NCBI GenBank assembly: GCA_964621085.1
Contig: CAZUKY010000001.1
Location: 167,226 to 231,225, forward strand
Direction: 5' to 3'
From: an uncultured Gammaproteobacteria bacterium
GTDB taxonomy: Bacteria; Patescibacteriota; Patescibacteriia; JACQRZ01
DNA: 64,000 nucleotides
In this document: in pieces, positions 10,427 through 58,321 of the stretch
Numbering within the stretch: position 1 is the stretch's first letter
How the letters are laid out: every line of letters begins with the position of its first letter
Translations under genes and position numbers: made by a program
The notes under the pieces: model-generated
The model's input: only the letters and a program-made list of their open reading frames with translations
What the model was told of the DNA's origin: nothing
Databases searched by the model: none

Positions 10427-10477
10427 ACTCTTTTACAGCGTCTTCTTCGCGGCCACTGGCCGTTGGTATACACTCCT

Positions 10478-32088: not shown

Positions 32089-32487
32089 CTACGCTCGGGT
32101 GACCCTTCCGTCATAAATCTCCTTTGCCAGGCGCGCCTTCTGGTTCGATGTCCACGCGCCCTGTGTCTGCAGGAGCTCCAACAGCTCCGCGGTCATCGCG
32201 AAGTTGTCGCCGTGCTGCTCGAGAAGCCCGGCCTCTGCGAGACTTGCCATGCCGCGAACGATGTACGTGCCCCATCCCTCGAGCCGTCCTCCGCTCATCC
32301 GATACCAATTGATGACATCTTCTCTCGTGGGTGACACCCACCCTCCCTTGGCCTGGCAGTAAATCACATACCAGTATGCCGCGAACTCGCACTCGGTATC
32401 CCCAAGACGATCACCGAACCCGCCGCGGCCACAGAGGAGTTCTCCTGGTGTAAGCGGGAGGGTATCACCGATCTGATTGTCGCTCAT
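32089..32487 (-). CDS. Hypothetical protein
   Basis: ORF in operon position between the ribosomal genes and the flippase. No family recognised. Confidence 0.4.
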   Translation of the reverse strand: MSDNQIGDTLPLTPGELLCGRGGFGDRLGDTECEFAAYWYVIYCQAKGGWVSPTREDVINWYRMSGGRLEGWGTYIVRGMASLAEAGLLEQHGDNFAMTAELLELLQTQGAWTSNQKARLAKEIYDGRVTRA

Positions 32488-32623: not shown

Positions 32624-33106
32624 TTACCGCTTGGAAAACTGCGGGGCTCTGCGGGCGCGCTTAAGACCCGGCTTCTTGCGCTCTTTGACGCGCGGGTCGC
32701 GAGTCATGAGACCCTCGGAGCGGAGCGTTTTTTTGAGTTCGACATTCCACGAAACAAGTGCGCGGGCAATGCCGTGGCGGACTGCCTCGGACTGGCCGTT
32801 AACACCGCCGCCCTGCACCTTGATGCTGAAATCAAACGCGGCGCGGTTGTCTGTCAAGACAAGCGGAAGCTCGACATTACGCTGCAAAATAAACGTCGGG
32901 AAGTACGTCTTGAAATCCTTCTCGTTGACGACGATATCGCCGCTGCCCGGCATCATGCGAACACGGGCAATCGCCGACTTACGGCGCCCGACGGCGCGAT
33001 AAATGGGTCCTTCCACAACCTCTTTCTTGGCAGCCTTTGCCGGAGCGGCGGAAGCCGTCTTGCGAGGTGCGCGCGGAGTGGCTGTTGCTGTCTTTTTTTC
33101 TGCCAT
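32624..33106 (-). CDS. rpsI: 30S ribosomal protein S9 (with ~35-aa basic N-terminal extension)
   Basis: GRRKSAIARV...C-terminal RRAPQFSKR. Confidence 0.9.
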   Translation of the reverse strand: MAEKKTATATPRAPRKTASAAPAKAAKKEVVEGPIYRAVGRRKSAIARVRMMPGSGDIVVNEKDFKTYFPTFILQRNVELPLVLTDNRAAFDFSIKVQGGGVNGQSEAVRHGIARALVSWNVELKKTLRSEGLMTRDPRVKERKKPGLKRARRAPQFSKR

Positions 33107-33508: not shown

Positions 33509-33859
33509 TTAAACGAATTCAATGCGCGCCATGCGTGCGGCATCCCCCTGCCGCTGCGGCAGCTTGACGATGCGCGTATAGCCGCCGGGCCGTTCCTTGT
33601 AGCGCGGACCGAGCTCTTCCAAGACTTTTTTGACCGCGTTTTCCGTCGGCAGAACCGCGAGAAGCTGGCGTCGAGACGAAAGTGTTGTGACGCGGCCCTT
33701 GCTGATCAGCGGCTCGACAAAAGACCGGAGCGCTTTTGCTTTTGCCTCGGTCGTCTGTATTTTTTCGTATACGATAAGCTGGGCGGCCAGGTTCTTCAGA
33801 AGCGCCCGGCGCGGTCCGGTTTTTCGGTCTAACGTCACTTTGTTTTTCCGATGTCTCAT
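33509..33859 (-). CDS. rplQ: 50S ribosomal protein L17
   Basis: MRHRKNKVTLDRKTGPRRALL... L17 signature. Confidence 0.9.
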   Translation of the reverse strand: MRHRKNKVTLDRKTGPRRALLKNLAAQLIVYEKIQTTEAKAKALRSFVEPLISKGRVTTLSSRRQLLAVLPTENAVKKVLEELGPRYKERPGGYTRIVKLPQRQGDAARMARIEFV

Positions 33860-33895
33860 ATCTCTCGCTTTAAAGCTGTGAACTTCAATCTCTCT

Positions 33896-34750
33896 CTAGC
33901 TTCCTTTCTTCGGACGGCCGCGCTTCTTTGGCGCTGATTCCTCGCCGCCTTCTTCGGCCTCTCCCTCTTCCTCGTCCTGAGCTGCTGCCTGGTCTTCGGT
34001 TTCTGCCTCGACGGCCGTCTCGAGCGGAGCCTCTTCTTCCTCGGCCTGCGTAGCCTCGGCGGAAACGCCGCCGAGAAGGGCAGCAAAGTGATCGACAAGA
34101 ATCTTGCTCGCTTCGCGCGCCGCTTCCTCTCCAGTCACACTGCCGTCCGTCTCGATGGTGAGCACGACTTTATTGTAGTTCGTCATCTGTCCGACGCGGA
34201 CATTTTGAATATCAAGCCCGACCATTTTGACAGGCGTAAAAATCGCATCGACGGCAATGGTCCCGATCTCAAGCTTTTCTTTCTCGCGCGCTTCCGTCGG
34301 CCAATACCCCCTGCCGCGCTTGACGAAGAGCTCCATTTCCAGTTGCGCATTCTTGTTTGTCAGCGTACAGATGTGCGCATCGGGTGTTGCAATCTCAACC
34401 TCGCTCGTACCCTCAATATCGGCACCTGTGACGTTCTTTTCCCCTTTCACCTGAAGCGTCACACGGACCGTCTCGTCTGAATGGACGCGAAAACGAACCT
34501 TCTTCAGATTCAAAATGATGTCAACAACATCCTCTTGTACGTACGGAATCGTTGAAAACTCATGAGCAACACCCTTGATCTTGACCGCAACGACCGCACC
34601 GCCCGGCAACGATGACAGCAGCACGCGACGCAGCGCATTGCCGATCGTCAGCCCATAGCCAGGATACAGCGGCTCGATGGTCATGACCGTCTGATTCGGC
34701 TTTTGCCCGGCCGCGTATTCGATCTTTGTGGGAAGGGAAACGTTTTCCAT
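33896..34750 (-). CDS. rpoA: DNA-directed RNA polymerase subunit alpha, lacking a canonical alpha-CTD
   Basis: The N-terminal domain (dimerisation and beta/beta' contacts) is collinear with RpoA for ~230 aa. The protein then ends in an acidic low-complexity tail plus KKRGRPKKG. Confidence 0.9.
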   Translation of the reverse strand: MENVSLPTKIEYAAGQKPNQTVMTIEPLYPGYGLTIGNALRRVLLSSLPGGAVVAVKIKGVAHEFSTIPYVQEDVVDIILNLKKVRFRVHSDETVRVTLQVKGEKNVTGADIEGTSEVEIATPDAHICTLTNKNAQLEMELFVKRGRGYWPTEAREKEKLEIGTIAVDAIFTPVKMVGLDIQNVRVGQMTNYNKVVLTIETDGSVTGEEAAREASKILVDHFAALLGGVSAEATQAEEEEAPLETAVEAETEDQAAAQDEEEGEAEEGGEESAPKKRGRPKKGS

Positions 34751-34782: not shown

Positions 34783-35415
34783 TTAGCGTGAGTAGAATTC
34801 GACAATCAACTTCATGTCGAAGAGCGGACGGTTATCGACCAAGTTCGGCTGACCGACCACCTTTGCCTGAAAGCTCTTTTTGTCCGTATGCAGCCACCCT
34901 GGAATATCCCGTTTTTCAAGACCAGCAAGGACGTCCTGATAGAGTTTTGACTTCTCCAAGCGCGGGTTCAGAGTGATCGTCTGTCCTGTTTTTACATGAT
35001 AGGACGGGATCGTGACTTTCTTGCCGTCGACAAGGATGTGGCCATAGCTGACCGCTTGGCGTGCGCGGCGATGCGAGCCGCCGGTCCATCCGAGCTGCGC
35101 AACGACATTATCGAGACGGCTCTCCAAAAACTGGAACAGGATCTCTCCGGTGTCACCGATTTTCCGCGCAGAAGCGGCAAATGAATTCCCCAATTGCTTT
35201 TCCGAAAGGCCATAGTAAAAACGGCACTTCTGCTTCTCGCGAAGCTGGATACCATAGGTGGTGAGCCGGGGCTTGCCTTTTTTCGCACCATGCACGCCCG
35301 GCGGATAGTTGCGGCGGACAATCGCGCATTTCGGCGTGTGGCACCGATCACCCTTGAGATAAAGTTTTACCCCGGCGCGGCGGCAGAGACGACATTGATC
35401 AATCACTTTTGACAT
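34783..35415 (-). CDS. rpsD: 30S ribosomal protein S4
   Basis: Zn-ribbon-like CRLCRR...C...C N-terminus and an S4 RNA-binding domain. Confidence 0.9.
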   Translation of the reverse strand: MSKVIDQCRLCRRAGVKLYLKGDRCHTPKCAIVRRNYPPGVHGAKKGKPRLTTYGIQLREKQKCRFYYGLSEKQLGNSFAASARKIGDTGEILFQFLESRLDNVVAQLGWTGGSHRRARQAVSYGHILVDGKKVTIPSYHVKTGQTITLNPRLEKSKLYQDVLAGLEKRDIPGWLHTDKKSFQAKVVGQPNLVDNRPLFDMKLIVEFYSR

Positions 35416-35453: not shown

Positions 35454-35933
35454 TTAAACACGGCGGACCTTTCGCTGCCGGCATCCGTTATGCGGAATCG
35501 GCGTCACGTCCTTGAGCGAAACAACGTTCAAGCCTTGCGCGTTCAGTGCGCGGATGGCGCCCTCGCGCCCGGATCCGACGCCGCGAACAAATACCGCAAC
35601 ATCGGTCATACCGTACGCTTTGAGCTTATCAGCGGCATTCTTGACGATAATCGAAGCTGCATATGGCGTTGACTTCTTCGGTCCGCGGAATCCACTTGCG
35701 CCGGCGGATGAGAACGTAAGGACATTGCCGTTCGGATCCGTAAAGCTGACGATCGTATTGTTGTATGTCGCCTTGATGTGGCAGTGGCCGAAAGAGATCT
35801 GGCGGACAGCCTTTTTCTTTCCCTTTTTCTTACCCGCTGTCGTGGCCGGCTTTGTCACACTCGCTTCCGGAGCGGCCATATCAAGCTGCTCTGTTACCGG
35901 CAGCTCTTCCGATTGTTTCAACTCGTCTGGCAT
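35454..35933 (-). CDS. rpsK: 30S ribosomal protein S11 (with N-terminal extension)
   Basis: HIKATYNNTIVSFTD...GSGREGAIRAL. Confidence 0.9.
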   Translation of the reverse strand: MPDELKQSEELPVTEQLDMAAPEASVTKPATTAGKKKGKKKAVRQISFGHCHIKATYNNTIVSFTDPNGNVLTFSSAGASGFRGPKKSTPYAASIIVKNAADKLKAYGMTDVAVFVRGVGSGREGAIRALNAQGLNVVSLKDVTPIPHNGCRQRKVRRV

Positions 35934-35975: not shown

Positions 35976-36368
35976 TTATGTCTTTGTCAGCGTGCGGCGA
36001 CCCGACATCATCGTCTTTCGGACATTGCCGCGGTTGGTGCGCGAGTTCGTCTTCGTGCGCTGCCCCCGCGCCGGAAGATTGCGTGCGTGGCGCGATCCCC
36101 GATAGGTGCCGAACTCCTTCAGATGCTTGATGTTGCCCATGATCTCGCGGCGCAGGTCGCCCTCCAGGCGAAAACGCTTTTCAATATACTCGCGGAGCTT
36201 GTTTGCTTCGCTTTCTGTCAGATCCTTTGTGCGCTTCTCGCCGTCCACGGCAGTCTCGGCAAGAATCTTCCGCGATAACGACAAACCGATGCCATACAGA
36301 TACGGCAACGCATACATCACTTTTTTGTTTTGAGGAAGAAGTACTCCTGCAATACGGATGACAGCCAT
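35976..36368 (-). CDS. rpsM: 30S ribosomal protein S13
   Basis: [15 protein letters not shown]...YRGSRH. Confidence 0.9.
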
Positions 36369-36884: not shown

Positions 36885-38630
36885 CTACGCCACAACGGCC
36901 CGAATCCGGCGGATGCCAGCAGAAGATGCCTCTTCTTTGACAATCGAAAAGGAGCCGATTTGACCGGTATGCGACACGTGCGGACCGCCGCAAAACTCCT
37001 TAGAAAACGCCTCTTCCAGCGACGGGCCAACGACATAAATGCTCACGCGATCGGGATATTTTTCCTGAAAAAAATAGAGGGCTCCGGTGCGTTTCGCCTC
37101 TTCGATCGGCAGCTCGATGCGCTGCACCGGGAGATCCTGCCGCACGATGTCGTTGACGAGTGCCTCGACTTGGCGCAGTTCCTCGTCGGTTACTTTGCGC
37201 GGGAACGAGAAGTCAAAGCGCGTGCGTTCGACCGTAATATCCGATCCGCGCTGCGAGACGTCAGGTCCCAGGACCTGTCGGAGCGCCTGCTGTAACAGAT
37301 GGGTTGCCGTATGCAGGCGTGTCACGATCGAGAGTTCCGCCTCGTCTTTTGCCTTTAACTCGCCGGTGTCCAGCAGCAATCCATGGCCGCCGAACTTCTT
37401 CTCGAGGCCGGCCCGAGAGATTTCCTGGTGTTTTTTGAACGCCTCTTCAAATGCTTCTCGCGTCAGTCCGCGTGCCTTCTCGCCTCCCACCTCTTTTGTG
37501 ACCTCGTAGGGAAGGCCGTAACTCTCGTAGAGCTTAAAGGCGGTCTGGGCATCGACGCTCTCAAGTTTTGCGAGCTCTTTGAGACCGTTCTTTAGCGTTT
37601 TGAGAAACTTTTCTTTCTCGGCGGAAAACTCGCTTGCAATTACCTCTTTTTGCAGCTCCGGATACCACTCGCCATAGTCGTCGACAATGCGATCAAAGAC
37701 CGGGGCAAGTGAAAGTGCGCCTTCGGCCAAGTACTCCTGCGCGATCACCCGCCGCAGAAGACGCCGCAGGATGTACCCTCGTTCTTTGTTGGACGGCCGA
37801 ACGCCGTCTGAGACCAAAAACGCGACGGCACGGCAGTGATCGGCAATGATACGCTTCATGCGCGGTTCGAGGGTTGCTGGTAGAAGCCCGATGATCGGAC
37901 TGAAGAGGTCTGTCTCATACATGGTACCTGTATGCTGAGCAACCATGGCAAGCCGCTCAAAACCCATGCCGGTATCAATCCCGGGTGTCGCCAGCTCGGT
38001 GAGATGCGCGCGACCCGCCTCGAGATCCTCCCGCGAACCGTCGCAGAAAAACTGATTAAACACGATATTCCACACCTCAATATCAGTACCGTTTGCATTT
38101 TTGCAGTAGATCTCCGTCGTTGGTCCGCACGGGCCGCTTGATCCCGTCGGACCCCAAAAGACGTCGCTCATCCCCTGCTCGCGGATATCGGTAACGCCCA
38201 GCTCCTGCCAGATGGCGCGCGACTCCTCGTCTTTCGGCACGTGTCCCGACCCCTCGAAAATGGAAACGTAGGAGATTGTGAGTCCGCACACCTTCGTTAT
38301 GAACTCATGCGCATACGTAATCGCCTCCCGCTTGAAATATCCGCCGAAGGAGAAATTCCCAAGCATCTCAAAAAAAGTGAGATGACTTTCATCACCCACC
38401 TCGTCGATATCCGATGTGCGGAAGCTTTTTTGGATCGAGGCGGTGTTTTTCGACCCAAAGTCGGCCATCGCGTCGGCCTCGCCAGTGTAGTACTTTTTGA
38501 ACTGCTGCATGCCCGCCGTCGTCAGGAGTACCGACGGATCATCAGGAATCAGCGAAGACGACGGCACGATCGCGTGCCCCCGCTCCTTAAAGTACTCGAT
38601 AAATTTTTTACGAAGTTCTGAGGAAGTCAT
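36885..38630 (-). CDS. alaS: Alanine--tRNA ligase, compact 581-aa form (catalytic + editing domains; abbreviated C-terminus)
   Basis: Class II AlaRS N-terminal motifs (FIEYFKERGH, TTAGMQQFK). Editing-domain HTATHLL and CGGPHV zinc motifs. Confidence 0.85.
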   Translation of the reverse strand: MTSSELRKKFIEYFKERGHAIVPSSSLIPDDPSVLLTTAGMQQFKKYYTGEADAMADFGSKNTASIQKSFRTSDIDEVGDESHLTFFEMLGNFSFGGYFKREAITYAHEFITKVCGLTISYVSIFEGSGHVPKDEESRAIWQELGVTDIREQGMSDVFWGPTGSSGPCGPTTEIYCKNANGTDIEVWNIVFNQFFCDGSREDLEAGRAHLTELATPGIDTGMGFERLAMVAQHTGTMYETDLFSPIIGLLPATLEPRMKRIIADHCRAVAFLVSDGVRPSNKERGYILRRLLRRVIAQEYLAEGALSLAPVFDRIVDDYGEWYPELQKEVIASEFSAEKEKFLKTLKNGLKELAKLESVDAQTAFKLYESYGLPYEVTKEVGGEKARGLTREAFEEAFKKHQEISRAGLEKKFGGHGLLLDTGELKAKDEAELSIVTRLHTATHLLQQALRQVLGPDVSQRGSDITVERTRFDFSFPRKVTDEELRQVEALVNDIVRQDLPVQRIELPIEEAKRTGALYFFQEKYPDRVSIYVVGPSLEEAFSKEFCGGPHVSHTGQIGSFSIVKEEASSAGIRRIRAVVA

Positions 38631-43639: not shown

Positions 43640-45208
43640 TCACTCAATCTCCTCTTTTTTCTCTTTGATGAACGAGAACCACTCTTCGGTGATCTCGATG
43701 AATGCCTGGAGCGGCAGCTCGATGAGCACGTCGAAGAGAAAGACGAAGACATTGACGCGGGAGATGTTGAACGAGAGCCAGTGGCCGACTTGCACGATCG
43801 GCATGGAAAAGGTGTCCAGCAAGGTTCCGAGGAGCGTCTGGCGGGGCTTGAGAATGATCAGCTCGCGCACCTGGCGGCGCAAGGTAATCCCGAAAAACGT
43901 GATAAGAGAGAAGAACAGGAAAAAGATAATGCCGCTCATCAGGTTGAAGTTCAACTTGTGCAGCACCCAGGCGACCGCACCGAATGAAATCGCATACACG
44001 GCGAGGTAAAAAATGGTGAAAAAAACGGAGAGGACCCGGTTGCGGCGGGGATCCGAATTTTTCTTCGGGACGAAAATCTCTGCCGGCGTTTCCTTGTAGA
44101 GAATCTCTTTGACGGCCTGAACAATGGCGCGCGTATTGGCATCGCTCGGAAAAGAAACGGTAAACGCGATGGCGGCGAGAAGAAACGGCGGGAACAAGAT
44201 ATTGATCAAGAGCGGCACGCCGTGAATCTCGCCTGCCGTCAAGAGGTCGTAGGGCAGCTCAACGGCCAGACCTAACACCATCTTGGTTAAAAAGATATAG
44301 ACAAACGCACGGATTGTGCGCGAATAGAGCCGCCGATGCTGCACGGAGTAGAGCCCCTCGCAAATACGCGTCGCCTCGCGCTCGAGGACATCCGGATCCA
44401 TGATCGCTTCGGGATTGTTTTTTGCAATCGTCAAAAGCACGATAAAGGGAATCCGGTGCCGGCGGAACTCTCCCTGGAACTTTTTGTTGAGCGGATGGCG
44501 AATGAGAGCGTCGATCTTGCGCGCCACGTTCGCGTACTCCGTCGCGCGCGTGCGCGGATCAGTGCTCGTGTCGATCCACTCGGGGAAACTCTGCTTCAAG
44601 ATGAAGTAGCGAAGCCGATGGATGTCGGGACGCAGGAGGATGCGGTATGCGGCAATGAACATCTGCGACTTGCGCAAACGCTCGTCCGCTTCGTCTTGAG
44701 CTTGGGGAGTCAGCGGCTCGCACTGTTCGTACATGAGGCGAACCAGCGCCTCTTCGTGATCCATGGGCGAGAGGCGCTCATCGATCGCGCAGGCAGCCAT
44801 CGCGATGAGCCAGTCGGAGTCTTTGTCTGAAAGGGTTTTTTCGCGCCGAAGCGACTCGACGATTCGCAAGTAAAAGGCGAGGATCTCGGCGACCTCGGAT
44901 ATCGCACGGTGGCCCAGTGTATTGTTCGGAAAATACCGCGATCGCACCAGTTCGCGTACCAGTCCGTTTGCGATCTTTTCGGGCTCATCCTGCAGGATCA
45001 GCCGCCGCGAGAGGATCCGCCGGATCGCATTTTGCCGCAGAAGATGCTCGTCGGCATAATCGATGACGCTGCGGATCTTTTCGTAATAAAACGCGATCGC
45101 GCCGACCGCTTCATTGATGACGATTTTTTGCTCGTCCTCGATCTCGCGCGGCTTTTTTTTCAAGGCAGCCGCATACCGCGAAAAGCGTTCTGTGAGTGTC
45201 AGAGGCAT
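43640..45208 (-). CDS. Membrane protein: large cytoplasmic N-terminal domain plus 4-5 C-terminal TM helices. Hypothetical; in an operon with the VirD4-like ATPase.
   Basis: Hydrophobic helices in the last ~200 aa (for example FPPFLLAAIAFTVSF and SVFFTIFYLAVYAISFGAVAWVL). Confidence 0.5.
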   Translation of the reverse strand: MPLTLTERFSRYAAALKKKPREIEDEQKIVINEAVGAIAFYYEKIRSVIDYADEHLLRQNAIRRILSRRLILQDEPEKIANGLVRELVRSRYFPNNTLGHRAISEVAEILAFYLRIVESLRREKTLSDKDSDWLIAMAACAIDERLSPMDHEEALVRLMYEQCEPLTPQAQDEADERLRKSQMFIAAYRILLRPDIHRLRYFILKQSFPEWIDTSTDPRTRATEYANVARKIDALIRHPLNKKFQGEFRRHRIPFIVLLTIAKNNPEAIMDPDVLEREATRICEGLYSVQHRRLYSRTIRAFVYIFLTKMVLGLAVELPYDLLTAGEIHGVPLLINILFPPFLLAAIAFTVSFPSDANTRAIVQAVKEILYKETPAEIFVPKKNSDPRRNRVLSVFFTIFYLAVYAISFGAVAWVLHKLNFNLMSGIIFFLFFSLITFFGITLRRQVRELIILKPRQTLLGTLLDTFSMPIVQVGHWLSFNISRVNVFVFLFDVLIELPLQAFIEITEEWFSFIKEKKEEIE

Positions 45209-45232
45209 AGAGTGGTGTATCCTGGCAGAGAA

Positions 45233-47005
45233 TTACAAAGCCCAATCGTCGATCGGGGGGGCGGGTTTTTCCGGATTCTTGGTCGGTGCCGGAGGCTCGG
45301 GCGGCGTAACTGCCGGCGCTGATGGCGCGCGATCGGCAGTATCGCGTTCCCGACTCTCGGCCGGCTGCACTGACGGTTGGCGCCCACCGTCGCGGTGCGG
45401 CTCTTTGCCCTCCAGATTTTTCGTCGGCGAAGCGCTTGTCAGCGCGGATCGCACCGACGAAGATACGGGCGATGGCCGTTTTTTTCGCTTCCGTTTTCGC
45501 GGCGCATCTTCATCGCGTCGCGGCTCTGCAGCAAGATCGCGGAGAGAGAGCGTCTTTTCCGGTGCAGTTGCCCGAGGCGGCATCGGCACTGCACGATCAG
45601 GCGCAGCGTGCGAAAAACCCGAACGCGAGGGCGGCGGAATAACCCGCCCGACTGGAGCAAAGGGACGCTGCGGCATCGCCGCCGCCTCGGCTGCACGCCG
45701 CTCTTTTTCTTTCTGATCCATCGTCTCGGTCCAGCGCCGGATCTTATCATCGACGATCTCGCGGGCGATCGCGTATCGCTCGCGGCTGACCTTGATCACT
45801 TTGTCCAGATTGCCGGTCTTTTCCTCCTCTGACAACGGTGGCAATCCGATCGCGGAAAAAGGATCGGAGGAGACGCCATCGATCATGAGTTTGATGTAGT
45901 AATTGAACTTCGGAATATTCACAAGATCTTCTTCCGTGAATCGCGGCGTAAACTCCTTGACCAAGAAATCCGCATCCGATGCGCCAACACGAAACGCGAT
46001 CATAGTGCCGACGTTGCCAAAGACCGCCGCTGAAACTTTTTCATCCAGCTGCTCGATGTACTGATGGGCGACAATAAGGTTGAGTCGGTACTTTCGCGCT
46101 TCCGACAGGATGTTGGCGAAACTCTCGGTCGCGAAATTTTGAAACTCGTCGACGTATAGGTAGAAGTCGCGGCGTGCGGCCTCGGGCATCTCGACGCGTT
46201 CCATCGCCGAGAGCTGAATTTTGGTGACAAGCATGCCGCCGAGCAAGCGACTGTTGTCCTCGCCGATCCGGCCCTTCGACAAATTCATGATCAGGATCTT
46301 TTGATTATCCATGATCTCGCGGATGTGAATCGATGACTTGACCTGGCCGACGATATTCCGAATCAGGGACGCGGACAAGAACTGACCGACCTTGTTTTGC
46401 ACCGGCGCGATTGCCTCGCTCGCGTACTTGTCGTTCCAGCTCGCAAAGTCATTGACCCAGAACGCCTTTACGACCGGGTCCTGGATCTTTTCGATGACCT
46501 TTTGGCGGTAGAGTTTGTCTGAGAGCATGCGATTCACGCCCAGCATGGTGCTTCCCGGATAGTCCAGGAGCGCGAGCAAGGTGTTGTTGAGAATGTACTC
46601 CATACGCGCGCTCCACACGTCTGGCCAGATTTTTTTGAAGACGCCCATCAGGCCGGAAGAGACCAGATGCTTGTAGCGCTCCTCGACCGTCTCGAGAATA
46701 TTGAACGCGACCGGATACTCCATATCCGCGGGGTTGAGATAGACCACGTCATTGATGCGGTGCGGCGGGATGTACTCCAGAATTTTTTCCGCCAAATCGC
46801 CGTGCGGATCGACAACGCCGACACCCCGGCCGTTGCGGATATCGTCGATGATCATGTTCTCAAGCACGGTTGACTTTCCCATGCCGGTTTTACCGATCAG
46901 GTACACGTGGCGCCTGCGGTCGTCTGTTTTGATGCCGAAACGGCGACGCTGGTTGCGGAACGTCGTCTCGCCGATGGCGGTAATTTCATTCTGATACAAA
47001 GACAT
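45233..47005 (-). CDS. VirD4/TraG/TraD-like type-IV-coupling-protein-family P-loop ATPase. Cytoplasmic form with no TM segment and a Pro/Arg-rich disordered C-terminal tail.
   Basis: Walker A YLIGKTGMGKST at residue ~37, Walker B LYVDEFQNF, and ARKYRLNLIVAHQYIEQL, characteristic of the T4CP family. Confidence 0.65.
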   Translation of the reverse strand: MSLYQNEITAIGETTFRNQRRRFGIKTDDRRRHVYLIGKTGMGKSTVLENMIIDDIRNGRGVGVVDPHGDLAEKILEYIPPHRINDVVYLNPADMEYPVAFNILETVEERYKHLVSSGLMGVFKKIWPDVWSARMEYILNNTLLALLDYPGSTMLGVNRMLSDKLYRQKVIEKIQDPVVKAFWVNDFASWNDKYASEAIAPVQNKVGQFLSASLIRNIVGQVKSSIHIREIMDNQKILIMNLSKGRIGEDNSRLLGGMLVTKIQLSAMERVEMPEAARRDFYLYVDEFQNFATESFANILSEARKYRLNLIVAHQYIEQLDEKVSAAVFGNVGTMIAFRVGASDADFLVKEFTPRFTEEDLVNIPKFNYYIKLMIDGVSSDPFSAIGLPPLSEEEKTGNLDKVIKVSRERYAIAREIVDDKIRRWTETMDQKEKERRAAEAAAMPQRPFAPVGRVIPPPSRSGFSHAAPDRAVPMPPRATAPEKTLSLRDLAAEPRRDEDAPRKRKRKKRPSPVSSSVRSALTSASPTKNLEGKEPHRDGGRQPSVQPAESRERDTADRAPSAPAVTPPEPPAPTKNPEKPAPPIDDWAL

Positions 47006-47020
47006 TGCGGTTGTGTTCAG

Positions 47021-48448
47021 TTATACGAACGGGATATTTGAAGGCGGTTCTTGCTTGTCCGCATCTTCACCTTCGGCTGGCGGCGGGATATCGACAACAA
47101 CTTTCTCCGCCGCGCGATAGACCGGCTCTTCGGAGAGCGGCAGCCGCGATGGGGGTTCGGCGCGCTTCACCTCGGCCTTACTGATCAAGGGAGCCTTGAT
47201 GTCGATCATCGGAAAGTGCCAGATACTTGCGACTTCTTCAATATTCAGGATATACGTGGGTCCGCCGCCAGAGGAGCGGCCGCGATAATTCTCCCACACC
47301 TTGCGCTGGCGCACTGCAACGCGCTGCGCGACGCGAAAGTAGTTCGCCTTTGTCGCGGTGTACTTATCGACGCCGAACGCATTCATGTCCTGCGTATTGA
47401 ACTGCTTGAACGAACCCATAACGCCACCGACCATGCGCTGGCGGTTCATCAGCTCTTTGGGCGCGATACAGATGACGCGCACCTTCGCGGCAAAACCAGG
47501 CTTTGAGGCCTTGATCCCGATTTGCTCCACGACCGAGCGTTCGGCCGGAGACAGGTGCTGGATTATCGACGGGGGTGCTGCCGGATCTTTTTTCGGTTCG
47601 GCGGGTTTTGCAAATGAGATGCCCAGAATCTTTTCCAACGGCCACGTTACCAGGCCGAGAACAGCGTCTGTTATTTTTTGCACACGCGACTTTGGTTTTG
47701 GCTTCTCGGGGGCGCCGATCAGTTTTTTGATCTCATTCATGCTGCGCTCCTTCCAGTCGCCGCCTGTCGGCACGAGCGGAATCTGGATAAAGATGGACTC
47801 GCCCGGCCGCAGCGTTCCCAAAAACTCAAGGAGCGACGCAAGCGGATCCTTGAACGCCTGGGAAATCTGGTCGTAAAACGCCGGATAAGTCCGGATCGGA
47901 TAGACGTCGTCCTTGGAAAGGGACAGTTCCGCGCCCCACATGTCGTACGTCTCGTCCGGCCAATCCTGCGGATACTCGTTCGTATAATCAGACGCCTCGA
48001 CGATTTCGGCATCCGGATACTGCGCGAACACCGCCGCTTCCAGAATGTCGCGGTACTTGACCGGAATGCGCACGTAGTACTGGATAAACCCTCCGCGGCT
48101 GATGATCTCGACAGCAAAGTTTTCCTGAAACTTGCCCTTCCAGTACTTGTCGATCAGGTTGCCGTATCCGCTGTAGAGCCCTTCAAGGTGCGCGAAGATA
48201 TTCTCGACCGCTTTTGGCGTCTGCTCGGTCTGCTTTGGCACGTTGATGGCCAAGAGCACATACTGAATGCTTGCGGCATAGTTGCCCTGGATCTCATTCA
48301 TCCACATCTCCCACAGTCCCCGAATGACAAACACGGCGATCAGGATCCAGCCGCCATTGATGAGAATGAACCAAAATGTTTTGAGCGGGTTTGAAAAATC
48401 AAGAGACGCGAAAAAATACAGGATATCCATACCTTCGTATATTAGCAT
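47021..48448 (-). CDS. Membrane-anchored hypothetical protein (N-terminal TM helix plus ~430-aa domain). First gene of the putative three-gene translocation module.
   Basis: TM helix FWFILINGGWILIAVFVIRGLW. No family recognised. Confidence 0.5.
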   Translation of the reverse strand: MLIYEGMDILYFFASLDFSNPLKTFWFILINGGWILIAVFVIRGLWEMWMNEIQGNYAASIQYVLLAINVPKQTEQTPKAVENIFAHLEGLYSGYGNLIDKYWKGKFQENFAVEIISRGGFIQYYVRIPVKYRDILEAAVFAQYPDAEIVEASDYTNEYPQDWPDETYDMWGAELSLSKDDVYPIRTYPAFYDQISQAFKDPLASLLEFLGTLRPGESIFIQIPLVPTGGDWKERSMNEIKKLIGAPEKPKPKSRVQKITDAVLGLVTWPLEKILGISFAKPAEPKKDPAAPPSIIQHLSPAERSVVEQIGIKASKPGFAAKVRVICIAPKELMNRQRMVGGVMGSFKQFNTQDMNAFGVDKYTATKANYFRVAQRVAVRQRKVWENYRGRSSGGGPTYILNIEEVASIWHFPMIDIKAPLISKAEVKRAEPPSRLPLSEEPVYRAAEKVVVDIPPPAEGEDADKQEPPSNIPFV

Positions 48449-49444: not shown

Positions 49445-51574
49445 CTATGAGGCGCGGGGCTGAGCCGGCTCTGCATTCTCTCCCGCGGATTTTGCCGGCG
49501 CCATCCACAGCGCGCGGGGGATCTTTTTCCATCCCGCGAAGAACTTCAGGAATATGCGCGTCAGCGAAATTGCGGAGAACATGCTGACCAGAATGCCGAT
49601 GGCAAGCGTCAGGGCGAATCCCTTGATCAGGCTAGCCGAAAACCAGAAGAGAATGGCGCACGTGATCAGCGACGCGACATTACTGTCCCGAATCGAGGTC
49701 CAGGCGCGCCGGAAGCCGTCCCTCAGGCTCGCATCAAGGCCCTTGCCGCTGCGAAGCTCTTCTTTCATGCGCTCGAAGATAAGAACGTTAGCATCCACCG
49801 CCATACCGATCGAAAGAATGAATCCCGCAATGCCCGCAAGCGTCAGTGTCACCGGCCAGATCTTGAAAATCGAGAGCACGATCGCGGTATAGATAAGCAG
49901 TGCGCATACCGCCAGGAGGCCCGGCAGCCGGTAAAAGAAAATCATGAAAATCACCACGAGCAAAAAGCCGAACAAGCCGGCGTACAGGCTCTTTTCCAGC
50001 GACTCGGCGCCGAGCGTCGGGCCGATCGTCTGCTGGCTGACCAGCGTGATGGGTACGGGAAGAGCGCCGGTATTGAGGCGCTGCGCAAGAAGCTTTGCTT
50101 CCTGAAGCGTGAAGTCCCCTTGAATGACTGCCCGGCCGTCGGTAATCGCCTGGTTCACTCGCGGCACGCTGATCGGCTGACCATCCAAAAGCACGGCAAC
50201 CGGTTTTTCGATATTGCGCTTGGTGATCTCGGCAAAGAGCTTTTTCCCTTCGTCATTGAACTCGAGGCCGACTTCCGGCAGGCGGGTCAGCTGGTTTGAC
50301 TCGACATACGCGCGTTTCAGCTGTTTGCCGGTAAGCCCCGTATCCTTCCACATGCCACCATCGGCGGGAAGATAGTCGCTCTCCGATTGCGCGCGGACCA
50401 AAATGCGGGCGATCGAGTACTCGTTCAACGGGCGCGCATCGGTACGATGAATCACATGGTACCCGAACTCAGTCTCGACCGGTGCGGAAATGTCTCCATT
50501 TTTCAAGGCGTATGCGGCCTCCTCAAATGGCGGCACGAGCATGCCTTTCGAGATCCAGCCCAGACTCCCCCCGGATCCCTTGCTTCCGGAATCCGTTGAG
50601 TACTCCTTCGCAAGTTCCCCAAAATTCTGCGGTGTCGCTTTCTGGCGCACTTCTTCGATTTTCTTTCGCGCGTCTTCTTTGGAAAGCTCCGATTCGCAGC
50701 GCGAAGCGCCCTGATAACAGATCAGGATGTGGCTGAGCGCAAGCTCTTCGCCGCTCGTGCGCGTATCCAGGAGTTTCACGACGTTGTACCCCTCGGTGTT
50801 TTTTACCGGAGACGGCGCGATCTCTCCTTTTTTCAAGCTCTTGGCACTCTCCAAAAGTTCGGAGAGCGGCACGTCCGCTGTTTGGGATGAGATCCAGCCG
50901 AGCTCGCCGCCCTTTTGGCTCGTTGCCAAGTCTTCGGAGCGATTTTTCGCAAGATCGACAAAATTGGCGCCGCTCGCACGAGCGTCTTTCAGGATCGCCT
51001 CCGCTTTTGCGCGCGCCGCGGCATTGTTTTTTTCAAGTTCTTTTTTCTGCTCGGGCGTCAACTCGGTGATCCGCTCTTCGGGCGGCATCTCTTCTTTAAA
51101 TTCAAGCAGCGGCGTCTCGCCGATCATACGGATAGCACTCGCCGTGTCCTGGACCCCGGCAAGCTCGACTGCGACGCGATACGAATCGCCCGTTTTCACG
51201 GTGCGGACAATAGGTTCTGCAACGCCAAAGGCGTTCACGCGGCGCTCGATAACGTCGCGCACCCCTTCGACAGCGGCCGTCTGCTCGCTCGGTGCGACTT
51301 TCGACAGATCCGTATCATACACCAGATGCGTCCCGCCTCTCAGATCAAGGCCGAGACGGAACGAGTCGGGAATGGCGGTAAAAGAAATCTGAGGAACCAC
51401 ATCTGCCGGCAGGCCCCATGACTGAAGAGTGGCATTGATCGGCTCGCGATAATGATTGAGCGCGTCAGTGCCTGAATAAAAGGCGGTGAAGGCAAAAAGA
51501 ACGGCGATGCCCAGCATCGTCCAGCGCAACTTGCCGCGCGGCGAGGGGGCGAAAATCTTTCTTAATATATTCAT
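49445..51574 (-). CDS. secD: Protein translocase subunit SecD carrying two tandem parvulin-type (PpiC/PrsA-like) peptidyl-prolyl isomerase domains inserted in the periplasmic head
   Basis: SecD TM1 and head motif LGLDLRGG. Next comes an insert with GGELGWISSQ...EGYNVVKLLD and SHILICYQGA...GGSLGWISKGMLVPPFEEAAYALKNGDISAPVETEFGYHVIHRTD (parvulin signatures). SecD resumes at VAVLLDGQPISVP plus the 6-TM core. Confidence 0.85.
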   Translation of the reverse strand: MNILRKIFAPSPRGKLRWTMLGIAVLFAFTAFYSGTDALNHYREPINATLQSWGLPADVVPQISFTAIPDSFRLGLDLRGGTHLVYDTDLSKVAPSEQTAAVEGVRDVIERRVNAFGVAEPIVRTVKTGDSYRVAVELAGVQDTASAIRMIGETPLLEFKEEMPPEERITELTPEQKKELEKNNAAARAKAEAILKDARASGANFVDLAKNRSEDLATSQKGGELGWISSQTADVPLSELLESAKSLKKGEIAPSPVKNTEGYNVVKLLDTRTSGEELALSHILICYQGASRCESELSKEDARKKIEEVRQKATPQNFGELAKEYSTDSGSKGSGGSLGWISKGMLVPPFEEAAYALKNGDISAPVETEFGYHVIHRTDARPLNEYSIARILVRAQSESDYLPADGGMWKDTGLTGKQLKRAYVESNQLTRLPEVGLEFNDEGKKLFAEITKRNIEKPVAVLLDGQPISVPRVNQAITDGRAVIQGDFTLQEAKLLAQRLNTGALPVPITLVSQQTIGPTLGAESLEKSLYAGLFGFLLVVIFMIFFYRLPGLLAVCALLIYTAIVLSIFKIWPVTLTLAGIAGFILSIGMAVDANVLIFERMKEELRSGKGLDASLRDGFRRAWTSIRDSNVASLITCAILFWFSASLIKGFALTLAIGILVSMFSAISLTRIFLKFFAGWKKIPRALWMAPAKSAGENAEPAQPRAS

Positions 51575-51699
51575 ACAACGTGGAACGCGAAGAGGAAAAT
51601 TGCAATAAAAACGGGCTCCAAACAAACTAGAAATTGAGTATATCCAAAAACAAAAAAAAGGCAATGCCTTTTTCTTGTAATAAGGAGGGTTTAAGGCTG

Positions 51700-56792: not shown

Positions 56793-56950
56793 TAAGCGGT
56801 CGCATATCTTCTGCCGAAGAGCAGAAATAGGGCGATTGAAGCTTGAAAATCAAACAAAATTTGGTTCAGATGTCTTCGGAACGTCTGAAACCGCATACCA
56901 CGGGGAATCCCCGCCACTGGCTGGTGGCGTTCGACGAAAGGAGTTACTCC

Positions 56951-58321
56951 ATGTTCATCCGTAAGACGTTCGCCAGCCTGCTGGCCGTCCTCGGTATCCT
57001 CTGCGCAGCGGCTCCGGCGGATGCGCACGGCAAGTCCACGGCCCCCGCCATTGTCAACGACCACGTCATCGTCCTGCCAAACGGCAAGACGGTCTTCGTG
57101 GGCGACTTCAACGCCGGGATCCACAAGATCGACACTCTCGAGTACGGTAAGGACGACAGCGTGGTCAGGTTCACGGGCGTTCGCACCTGCATCGGCAACG
57201 AGATCGAAGTGGCAGCGAATCTCTCCGGGATGACCTTCACGACCGCGTCCGGCAACGGATACGAGGTCGTGAAGAAGAAGTCCTCGGCCACGAAGCTGAC
57301 GCTGAAGAACATCGGCGCAGCCGCTGCGGACTTCGACGTCGTCCTCAAGGCCGACGGCCGGCTTGCTGGCAAGCACGTCTGGCTCACGGCCAGGAACGTC
57401 TCGACCAACTGCAAGAACGAAACGGTCAAGGCGTGGACCCGCGTGATCCAGGTCACCGAGCCGTGGTTCCAACCGCGGTTCGGGGGCCAGCTCTGGGTCA
57501 ACAACTACGACCAGAGCGCCTGGGCATCCTCGCCCACAGCGTCCTCGTCGCACCTGACCCAGGACGTCCTCGCACTCGCAAGAATGCACGTCACGGGCGG
57601 GTTCGCTCTTCTCGGCGGCGCAGCCGTCGGGCGGACGACCCACAAGTCCGATCCGAACTTCTCGGACCGGACCCTCCCGTGGACCACCCCCGGCTTCGCG
57701 GCGCTGTCGCTCCTGTTCGGTGTCGAGCATGACTATCGGAGCGGTTGGTTCGCCAACCGGCTCCAGCTCATGGGCGGCCCGAACATATCATTGAACGACA
57801 GCTTCCTCCTCGGCACCAAGCGGCCGACGGAGGGCGTGCCGCCACTCAACTTCCTGGCCAGGAGTCGCACCCAGCTCGGCCTGGTGAAGTGGTCCAACCA
57901 CTTCGCCAACGACGGAGGGCGGGCGTTCTACAACACGGATGCCTACATTCCACTCCTCCACTTGGACAAGGAGCGGTTGAATACCCTTGGGGCCTACCTC
58001 GGGTACAACTACAACATCTCCTTCCAGGAGCGGGACATCCACGGCCGTGCCGGTACGGTCGCCACGCAGTGGCTCGGCGGCGCCATGTACAATGGCAACG
58101 CCGGCAATGGGCTCGGCAACTACTTCCTGAAGCTCGGCGGCGGGTTCGCGAATCAGGCCGTCAACCTTCAGATCCAGGGCGGCATCTCCATTATGGACTC
58201 GGATCTGGATCCGGAGTCTCTGGCGGACGTCGCGCGGAAATTGACCGTACAGCCGCATTCGGATCTCGATCCGAAGTCCTTGGCAGACATGCGGCAATTG
58301 GCCGGAAAGGAGACCAAGTGA
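56951..58321 (+). CDS. Secreted protein with signal peptide, hypothetical (ORF opens at 56843). GC-rich island.
   Basis: Signal peptide MFIRKTFASLLAVLGILCAAAPADA. Gly/Asn-rich C-terminal half. No family recognised. Confidence 0.55.
   Translation: MFIRKTFASLLAVLGILCAAAPADAHGKSTAPAIVNDHVIVLPNGKTVFVGDFNAGIHKIDTLEYGKDDSVVRFTGVRTCIGNEIEVAANLSGMTFTTASGNGYEVVKKKSSATKLTLKNIGAAAADFDVVLKADGRLAGKHVWLTARNVSTNCKNETVKAWTRVIQVTEPWFQPRFGGQLWVNNYDQSAWASSPTASSSHLTQDVLALARMHVTGGFALLGGAAVGRTTHKSDPNFSDRTLPWTTPGFAALSLLFGVEHDYRSGWFANRLQLMGGPNISLNDSFLLGTKRPTEGVPPLNFLARSRTQLGLVKWSNHFANDGGRAFYNTDAYIPLLHLDKERLNTLGAYLGYNYNISFQERDIHGRAGTVATQWLGGAMYNGNAGNGLGNYFLKLGGGFANQAVNLQIQGGISIMDSDLDPESLADVARKLTVQPHSDLDPKSLADMRQLAGKETK

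Follow-up and report, generated by a model that had tools for sequence, protein, structure and literature searches.

In bacterial RNA polymerases the C-terminal domain (CTD) of the alpha subunit, which is usually regarded as universal or standard there, reads the UP elements and serves as the docking site for many activators, with class I activation working through contacts with this domain. A recent preprint ties the flexibly tethered DNA-binding alpha-CTDs to a speeding-up of transcription initiation; in its title, RNA polymerase is presented as a general mechanism for accelerating protein-DNA association (bioRxiv 10.64898/2026.07.21.739884). Alpha subunits that have lost the CTD and retained the N-terminal domain have been described in Tremblaya, Hodgkinia and the chloroplasts of Euglena, and a single sentence of the same paper states that the CTD loss "is also present in Parcubacteria" (PMC8321222). 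It is noted that the work cited there for the Parcubacteria, Nelson and Stegen 2015, does not contain the words "polymerase", "rpoA" or "alpha" in its main text. The Uhrbacteria, which will be of concern below, fall within the Parcubacteria group of the Patescibacteria.

The AT-hook, as Aravind and Landsman are said to have defined it in 1998, is a Gly-Arg-Pro core with Arg or Lys on both sides, and single AT-hooks bind weakly. The AT-rich motif recognized by WhiB7 is located directly upstream of the −35 element. In the solved complexes of WhiB7 with RNA polymerase and promoter, and with sigmaA and DNA, the C-terminal AT-hook is seen in the minor groove of this AT-rich motif (PMC10243135). In CarD of Myxococcus, which is bound to the beta subunit of the polymerase, an unfolded acidic segment is followed by RGRP/AT-hook repeats; the protein binds the AT-rich minor groove upstream of the promoter, where it maximises the activity and is not essential, and its basic part is exchangeable for other disordered basic segments (PMC4374960). 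The eukaryotic AT-hook proteins HMGA1 and HMGA2 are disordered and contain the core P-[KR]-[KR]-R-G-R-P-[KR]-K as well as an acidic stretch (PMC4482583).

Here we describe an alpha subunit, from a Patescibacteria (Uhrbacteria-like) genome, in which an AT-hook is found where the CTD would be expected. The gene lies in the window, by which we mean the whole stretch of 64,000 nucleotides of DNA that was analysed, and its features and those of its neighbours are as follows.

33896..34750, minus strand: rpoA, the alpha subunit without a C-terminal domain, 284 aa plus a TAG stop (from the ORF list, Pfam and NCBIfam)
34064..34750, minus strand: alpha N-terminal (assembly/dimerisation) domain, residues 1-229 (from AlphaFold, Foldseek and PDB sequence matches, the last over approximately residues 19-252)
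33929..34063, minus strand: disordered acidic linker of 45 aa (residues 230-274) with a net charge of −19 (from pLDDT and composition)
33899..33928, minus strand: C-terminal AT-hook, K275-K-R-G-R-P-K-K-G-S284 (from conservation and codon variation)
33911-33922, minus strand: RGRP core of the AT-hook, within the C-terminal motif of RpoA
33860..33895, minus strand: rpoA-rplQ intergenic spacer, 36 nt, too short for an extra domain
33509..33859, minus strand: rplQ (ribosomal protein L17), the next gene of the alpha operon (Pfam Ribosomal_L17, E 1.3e-34)
34783..35415, minus strand: rpsD (ribosomal protein S4), the upstream neighbour of rpoA (Pfam Ribosomal_S4 and S4 domains)
35454-35933 and 35976-36368: ORFs that are putative rpsK and rpsM, on the basis of their translations read by eye

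The gene is thus placed between rpsD and rplQ in the alpha operon, as is usual for rpoA, and if the two ORFs are counted as rpsK and rpsM the order would be the canonical rpsM-rpsK-rpsD-rpoA-rplQ. The 284-aa product is matched by the Pfam families RNA_pol_A_bac (E 5e-35) and RNA_pol_L (E 4e-20), and it passes the cut-offs of the two NCBIfam rpoA equivalogs, with 279.1 bits against 277 for NF003519 and 260.1 against 227.8 for TIGR02027, with these models being aligned only up to positions ~224-249 out of their 298-320. Among the 58 alpha chains of the PDB that match at E<=1e-20, all the alignments lie inside residues 2-252 of the query, and the best stretch ends between residues 183 and 252 (between 216 and 252 in all but one). 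In the AlphaFold model, for which a 19-sequence alignment was the input, residues 1-229 are confident, with block-mean pLDDT of 77-96 and the last helix at residues 207-225. Searching with this model, Foldseek returns the alpha N-terminal domain chains of E. coli, Thermus, Mycobacterium tuberculosis and Bacillus; over ~223 columns the target-normalised TM scores reach 0.94. The N-terminal assembly domain is therefore shown to be intact, and the proposal of the earlier note that the protein is collinear with bacterial RpoA through this domain only is borne out. Gene order, domain content and the curated score all identify the protein as an orthologue of RpoA, although it lacks the CTD, which is a classical feature of this family.

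The absence of the canonical CTD, which had also been claimed, holds under both the alignments of RpoA sequences and the profile of the domain: RNA_pol_A_CTD (PF03118) gives no Pfam match in the protein even at E<=1. The earlier note had named two findings that would overturn this claim, namely a separate CTD-encoding ORF downstream and a frameshift by which a CTD would be restored. For both, the 64-kb window was translated in all six frames and scanned with a home-built alpha-CTD HMM, made from the collected sequences that match the E. coli CTD, and nothing was found (best E 0.9). As a positive control, the same HMM recovers the CTD in 22/22 of the CTD-type rpoA genes at related Patescibacteria loci, so it is sensitive enough in this lineage, and in the 58 CTD-less related loci it gives no match in any frame. 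Moreover, only 36 nt separate the rpoA stop from rplQ, and therefore there is no room for either a CTD ORF or a frameshifted CTD. Within these 64 kb a frameshifted or split gene is thus excluded, whereas a CTD might be encoded elsewhere in the genome.

It could be considered that the rpoA gene is truncated, frameshifted or pseudogenised, or that the contig is misassembled, with the real CTD having been lost from it. This reading is rejected, and we give it practically no chance, because the same architecture is present in 120/120 of the nearest homologues, which come from independent assemblies, and in 58/80 of the species-representative genomes, because no frame carries a CTD signal and rplQ follows the rpoA stop after 36 nt, and because the C-terminal motif is under purifying selection, as discussed below.

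The N-terminal domain is followed by a tail. The segment 33899-34063 is translated to SAEATQAEEEEAPLETAVEAETEDQAAAQDEEEGEAEEGGEESAPKKRGRPKKGS, which is exactly the last 55 codons of rpoA. Glu accounts for 17 of these residues, Asp for 2 and Ala for 11, and the final ten are KKRGRPKKGS. The earlier description of the last ~55 aa as acidic, Glu/Ala/Asp-rich and of low complexity, and as ending in RGRP, the core of the AT-hooks, is thus accurate in both its parts. In the AlphaFold model no secondary structure is present after residue 225, and the pLDDT falls under 50 at residues 230-276 and 282-284, so that the hook is predicted to be located in an intrinsically disordered segment. A repeat expansion, considered as the source of the low-complexity tail, is rejected, as tandem repeats were not found.

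The sequence P-K-K-R-G-R-P-K-K-G agrees with the definition of the AT-hook, and the consensus of 137 homologues is the same. With the isolated 26-aa tail, the Pfam model AT_hook (PF02178) gives 11.3 bits against a cut-off of 17.4 bits (E 0.36), with the alignment covering residues 16-24 of the peptide, SAPKKRGRP (P274-P280 and two residues upstream); this sub-threshold score says little, because a lone motif of 9 residues seldom reaches the cut-off. When the same 26-aa tail was compared with the PDB sequences, nothing was returned, so a direct structural template for the hook is absent.

More can be learnt from the conservation. The 120 best database homologues, which are 53-100% identical and 240-299 aa long and among which the named ones are Candidatus Uhrbacteria or Patescibacteria, include none with a CTD (0/120, by the Pfam domain and the CTD HMM), and they carry a C-terminal RGRP in 116 cases and GRP in 118, with the two exceptions to GRP being one truncated entry and one sequence with KKKRATKKK. 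In the alignment of 19 sequences, which reaches down to 43% identity, there is no variation at K276, G278, R279 and P280, and K275 and R277 show at least 90% conservation, while the 45 residues preceding the hook are unalignable. Over the 137 hook-bearing sequences the consensus is [P/K]-K-K-R-G-R-P-[K/R]-K, located 2-9 residues from the C-terminus. The linker, unalignable as it is, is still acidic among the homologues, the medians over 128 hook-bearing ones being 36 aa for the length, −13 for the net charge and 0.42 for the acidic fraction.

The eight hook codons were compared over 18 loci with GC contents of 29-55%. All of the 4/4 Gly codons, all of the 4/4 Pro codons and five Arg codons are used, including the switches between AGR and CGN. 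As the codons vary synonymously in this way, the selection must act on the peptide rather than on an overlapping nucleotide signal. The alternative of a conservation at the DNA level, for example of a signal for the expression of rplQ, is rejected because the synonymous positions vary freely. A mutational bias, with Lys codons being favoured at low GC, is rejected as well as the cause of hook versus Lys-rich ends, because the hook is found at 29-55% GC and the Lys-rich ends at 25-60%. This codon variation shows that the hook is maintained as a peptide by purifying selection throughout a large clade of the Patescibacteria.

The motif is also not a chance match. In the ORF segments of all frames from the window and the 80 related loci, amounting to 335,159 residues, [KR]RGRP[KR] occurs 20 times, and 18 of these occurrences are RpoA C-termini. 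The two others are at the N-termini of ribosomal protein S9, where KKRGRPKK stands on an N-terminal extension in the loci L037 and L065.

The 80 Patescibacteria loci were returned by a scan of species-representative genomes, for which the locus search was built on the 19 hook-type sequences, with a 45-sequence alignment of all the CTD-less types being too divergent. The titles of the records name Uhr-, Kerfeld-, Veblen-, Falkow-, Magasanik-, Doudna-, Azam- and Nealsonbacteria, besides placeholder names. This survey of the rpoA C-termini in the relatives, which the earlier note had recommended, gives the following numbers.

CTD retained (for example in Doudnabacteria and Azambacteria): 22 of the 80 loci
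AT-hook end: 17 of the 80 loci
Lys/Arg-rich end without RGRP: 24 of the 80 loci
acidic end only: 17 of the 80 loci

The 58 CTD-less loci thus include 17 with a hook. A like mixture of types is found among the best 150 representatives of the clusters at 50% identity, where 86 have the CTD, and four of the CTD-less ones end in KKRGRPKK. Intermediate ends are present, too, namely PKKRGKKKK (L036), KKKRGRSKK (L032), KKKRASKKK (L008) and KKKGRPKK (P0055 and P0057), and these forms suggest that the hook and the Lys-rich ends are related states. In a crude neighbour-joining tree of the N-terminal domain the hook types do not group together but are spread over several clades with the other types between them, this tree being too weak to give the direction of the change, that is, to tell a single gain with later decay from multiple gains.

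The relatives with Lys-rich (24/58) or acidic-only (17/58) ends imply that the hook is dispensable over evolutionary time, and CTD-less relatives are evidently viable with a generic basic tether or without any basic end. It is possible that the basic end, whether it is a hook or Lys-rich, is a generic electrostatic tether by which the non-specific affinity for DNA is raised. The tether would then serve the association with the nucleoid, the sliding or the promoter search, with no reading of A/T tracts and no fixed position at the promoter. The interleaving of the hook, Lys-rich and degenerate forms in the crude tree is in its favour, as is the existence of the degenerate ends in the five sequences named above, and it may be that generic DNA affinity outweighs the A/T-specific reading, given the Lys-rich and acidic-only relatives. 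However, over 135 distinct sequences no change is seen in the residues R, G, R and P, and their GC-rich codons persist even at 29% GC, a constraint far in excess of what is needed for positive charge alone; and inside the hook clades the motif shows no drift to Lys. For these reasons we consider this alternative unlikely, though it deserves to be taken seriously.

The CTD-bearing relatives are informative about the linker. Their interdomain linker is mostly 16-44 aa long and mostly acidic, with 5-11 Asp/Glu versus 0-2 Lys/Arg. From the long acidic linker in these relatives it follows that the acidic tether is older than the CTD loss, and that the hook occupies the former position of the CTD. 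These same observations bear on the idea that the acidic tail itself is the functional unit, acting as a nucleic-acid mimic or autoinhibitory element that occupies the DNA- or RNA-binding surfaces of the polymerase, with the basic end mainly pairing with it inside the molecule or controlling its conformation. The region 1.1 of sigma70 and the acidic tail of the delta subunit of Firmicutes might serve as models for such a role, an acidic composition is present in nearly all of the CTD-less tails, of which 17/58 have no basic end at all, and the linker is acidic in the CTD-bearing relatives, too. But a linker that is older than the CTD loss cannot alone explain a new C-terminal motif, and an invariant RGRP is needless for a mere charge partner, so that we regard this idea as improbable.

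Based on the above, we propose the following model. In this lineage the helix-hairpin-helix CTD would have been replaced by a single AT-hook peptide (KKRGRPKK) at the end of a pre-existing flexible acidic linker. As the polymerase has two alpha chains, it would carry two hooks on tethers of ~45 residues. The Arg-Gly-Arg core of each is expected to enter the narrow minor groove of the A/T-rich DNA upstream of the −35 element, and the hooks would add a weakly sequence-selective affinity for DNA, by which the promoter binding would be sped up or stabilised, which is the job of the alpha-CTD on the UP elements elsewhere. By analogy with the HMGA-type proteins, the acidic linker would hold the tether off the DNA by repulsion, and it would probably also compete with the DNA for the hook, so that only good A/T tracts are bound. 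That the hook substitutes for the CTD has strong indirect support: the idea is strengthened because the hook is invariant in more than 130 homologues while the linker varies, and because purifying selection at the peptide level is combined with the topological position of the CTD. That it does so as a tethered A/T minor-groove anchor taking over from the CTD we think somewhat probable, and the same holds for the explanation taken as a whole, in which this rpoA would encode a functional alpha subunit with its CTD so replaced. The anchor is plausible because precedents are available in CarD, in WhiB7 and in the tethered alpha-CTDs. It is also expected that class I type activation through alpha-CTD contacts should be absent in the lineage, as had been supposed in advance, because the activator surfaces of the CTD are gone.

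The ligand of the hook could also be sought in RNA. AT-hook-type peptides are able to bind RNA, and the hook might contact the nascent transcript near the RNA exit, or another structured RNA, instead of the promoter DNA. The copies of KKRGRPKK on the N-terminal extension of S9 in L037 and L065, where the ligand would be RNA, are consistent with this; KKRGRPKK is possibly a portable nucleic-acid-binding peptide in these lineages, with RNA as one of its possible ligands. On the other hand, the motif in RpoA takes the place of a DNA-binding domain and is carried by the same linker, and the canonical P-K-K-R-G-R-P-K-K is of the DNA minor-groove type. We thus believe RNA binding in place of DNA binding to be very improbable. 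Note also that the S9 copies, together with the sister lineages without a hook, would weaken a strictly AT-sequence-specific role of the anchor.

The DNA of the window offers a small sample of the predicted target. Only 8 sigma70-like promoter candidates could be called in it, and in the 40 bp upstream of their −35 elements the A/T fraction is ~0.55 versus 0.50 in the intergenic DNA, with n too small for a significance test. A/T tracts are located upstream of some of the 8 candidates, for example those at 10463, 32487 and 61696. One such upstream A/T tract doubles as the T-run of the rpsI terminator. Over the window, the density of W6 tracts is 12.3 per kb in the intergenic DNA versus 6.1 in the coding DNA. 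The model can be carried further by supposing that, over a large part of the Patescibacteria radiation, a linear motif of 9 residues has functionally replaced a folded domain of a core subunit, that the paired AT-hooks form a minimal reader of UP elements, with which matching paired A/T tracts in the promoters have co-evolved, and that the series from the CTD to the hook, to the Lys-rich end and then to the acidic-only end in the sister lineages is a stepwise simplification, in which the recognition of upstream promoter DNA and the activation through alpha are finally lost. This extended form we put forward tentatively, as a possibility that we ourselves find rather doubtful.

These results show that much of a very large and mostly uncultivated bacterial radiation is without the alpha-CTD and that a sizeable clade of it has a conserved AT-hook at exactly this position. 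Should the hook act in the way suggested here, it would be a natural minimal solution for the tethered recognition of upstream DNA and an analogue, on a core subunit, of CarD and WhiB7, and a different promoter grammar and a much smaller repertoire of activation mechanisms would be predicted for these bacteria. In a search of the full-text literature, with most subscription journals outside its coverage, nothing was found on bacterial alpha subunits that carry an AT-hook; the parts, the alpha N-terminal domain and the AT-hook, are known, and it is their combination that we have not found described.

Finally, we compare this subunit with the known systems. With the canonical RpoA it shares the orthologous N-terminal domain, the fold and the position in the operon, and also the general arrangement in which a flexible linker leads to a small predicted A/T minor-groove module in two copies per enzyme. 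By contrast, the module of the canonical RpoA is the helix-hairpin-helix CTD of ~70-80 aa (PF03118), whereas here it is a linear motif of ~9 residues with the activator surfaces missing, and the linker here is strongly acidic. Its length is also ~3 times that of the linker in the alpha subunit of E. coli.

Compared with the CTD-less alpha subunits of Tremblaya, Hodgkinia and Euglena, the difference is that those are described as the result of simple erosion, with no replacement DNA-binding motif reported, whereas here a conserved and selected motif is present. HMGA1 and HMGA2 are alike in combining the AT-hook core with an acidic stretch in a disordered chain, but they have three hooks followed by the acidic tail, which is the reverse order, and they are chromatin proteins that are not linked to a polymerase core.

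For CarD of Myxococcus xanthus the likeness is that a disordered acidic segment is followed by RGRP in a chain attached to the polymerase, and its swappable basic part is a parallel to the hook and Lys-rich variants found here. In contrast to the RpoA tail, CarD is an accessory factor with four hooks, while here there is one hook per chain of a core subunit and two per enzyme; moreover, CarD is not homologous to the RpoA tail and belongs to another phylum. When compared with the HMGA-like domain of the CarD type, the tail has the acidic segment and the disorder, and with one RGRP per chain it falls outside that class. WhiB7 of the Actinobacteria is similar in having one AT-hook, at its C-terminus, that is held on the polymerase, by which the geometry that we propose is seen to be feasible; it differs in being a regulated Fe-S transcription factor that sits on region 4 of sigma and has no acidic tether, rather than a constitutive core subunit.

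In the alpha subunits of Patescibacteria that keep the C-terminal domain (CTD; 22 loci between L004 and L078, e.g., L040, L058 and L027), the interdomain linker is for the most part unusually long, at 16-44 aa, and in most of these linkers the acidic residues far outnumber the basic ones. The acidic tether therefore predates the loss of the CTD. That Parcubacteria lack the alpha-CTD is stated in PMC8321222, the sole such statement found, which gives PMC4508563 as its reference. The words 'polymerase', 'rpoA' and 'alpha' are all absent from the main text of PMC4508563, and the primary source for the absence is not traceable by this route through that main text.

Two genomes of related Patescibacteria also have the KKRGRP[KR]K motif of the RpoA tail on ribosomal protein S9, in its N-terminal extension; the sequences there are DEKPKKRGRPRKTVIKK and PAAKKRGRPKKKAIEH, respectively:

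L037 4640-5179, plus strand: S9 with AT-hook
L065 4518-5027, plus strand: S9 with AT-hook

In the window S9 (32624-33106, minus strand) the N-terminal extension is basic and RGRP is absent. The motif appears to be a portable nucleic-acid-binding peptide within the Patescibacteria radiation.

Other features of the window are as follows.

32089-32487, minus strand: 132-aa ORF directly downstream of rpsI
36885-38630, minus strand: alanyl-tRNA synthetase, 581 aa
45233-47005, minus strand: type IV secretion coupling-protein-like ATPase with TrwB/TraG domains
49445-51664, minus strand: SecD/SecF-type protein, 739 aa
55776-56717, minus strand: 313-aa ORF
56843-58321, plus strand: 492-aa ORF

Ahead of the 132-aa ORF, which matched no Pfam family, lies a promoter-like site close to consensus, TTGACA-17-TAGCAT, and about 18 nt upstream of this site is a stem-loop followed by TTTTAATTTT, which together look like the rpsI terminator. 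The 313-aa and 492-aa ORFs, divergently oriented and also without a Pfam family, have GC3 of about 0.85 versus about 0.6 in the rest of the window; the pair is a compositional outlier and is possibly acquired DNA. The ATPase is flanked by large ORFs of 522 and 475 aa (block 43640-48448, minus strand), neither with a Pfam match.

In the SecD/SecF-type protein, PPIC-type peptidyl-prolyl isomerase domains (matched in two stretches, the best at residues 293-409) separate the SecD P1 N-terminal subdomain from the SecD P1 head subdomain, which is an unusual fusion. Note also that the alanyl-tRNA synthetase comprises the catalytic core and the second additional domain, with the typical bacterial enzyme being far longer.
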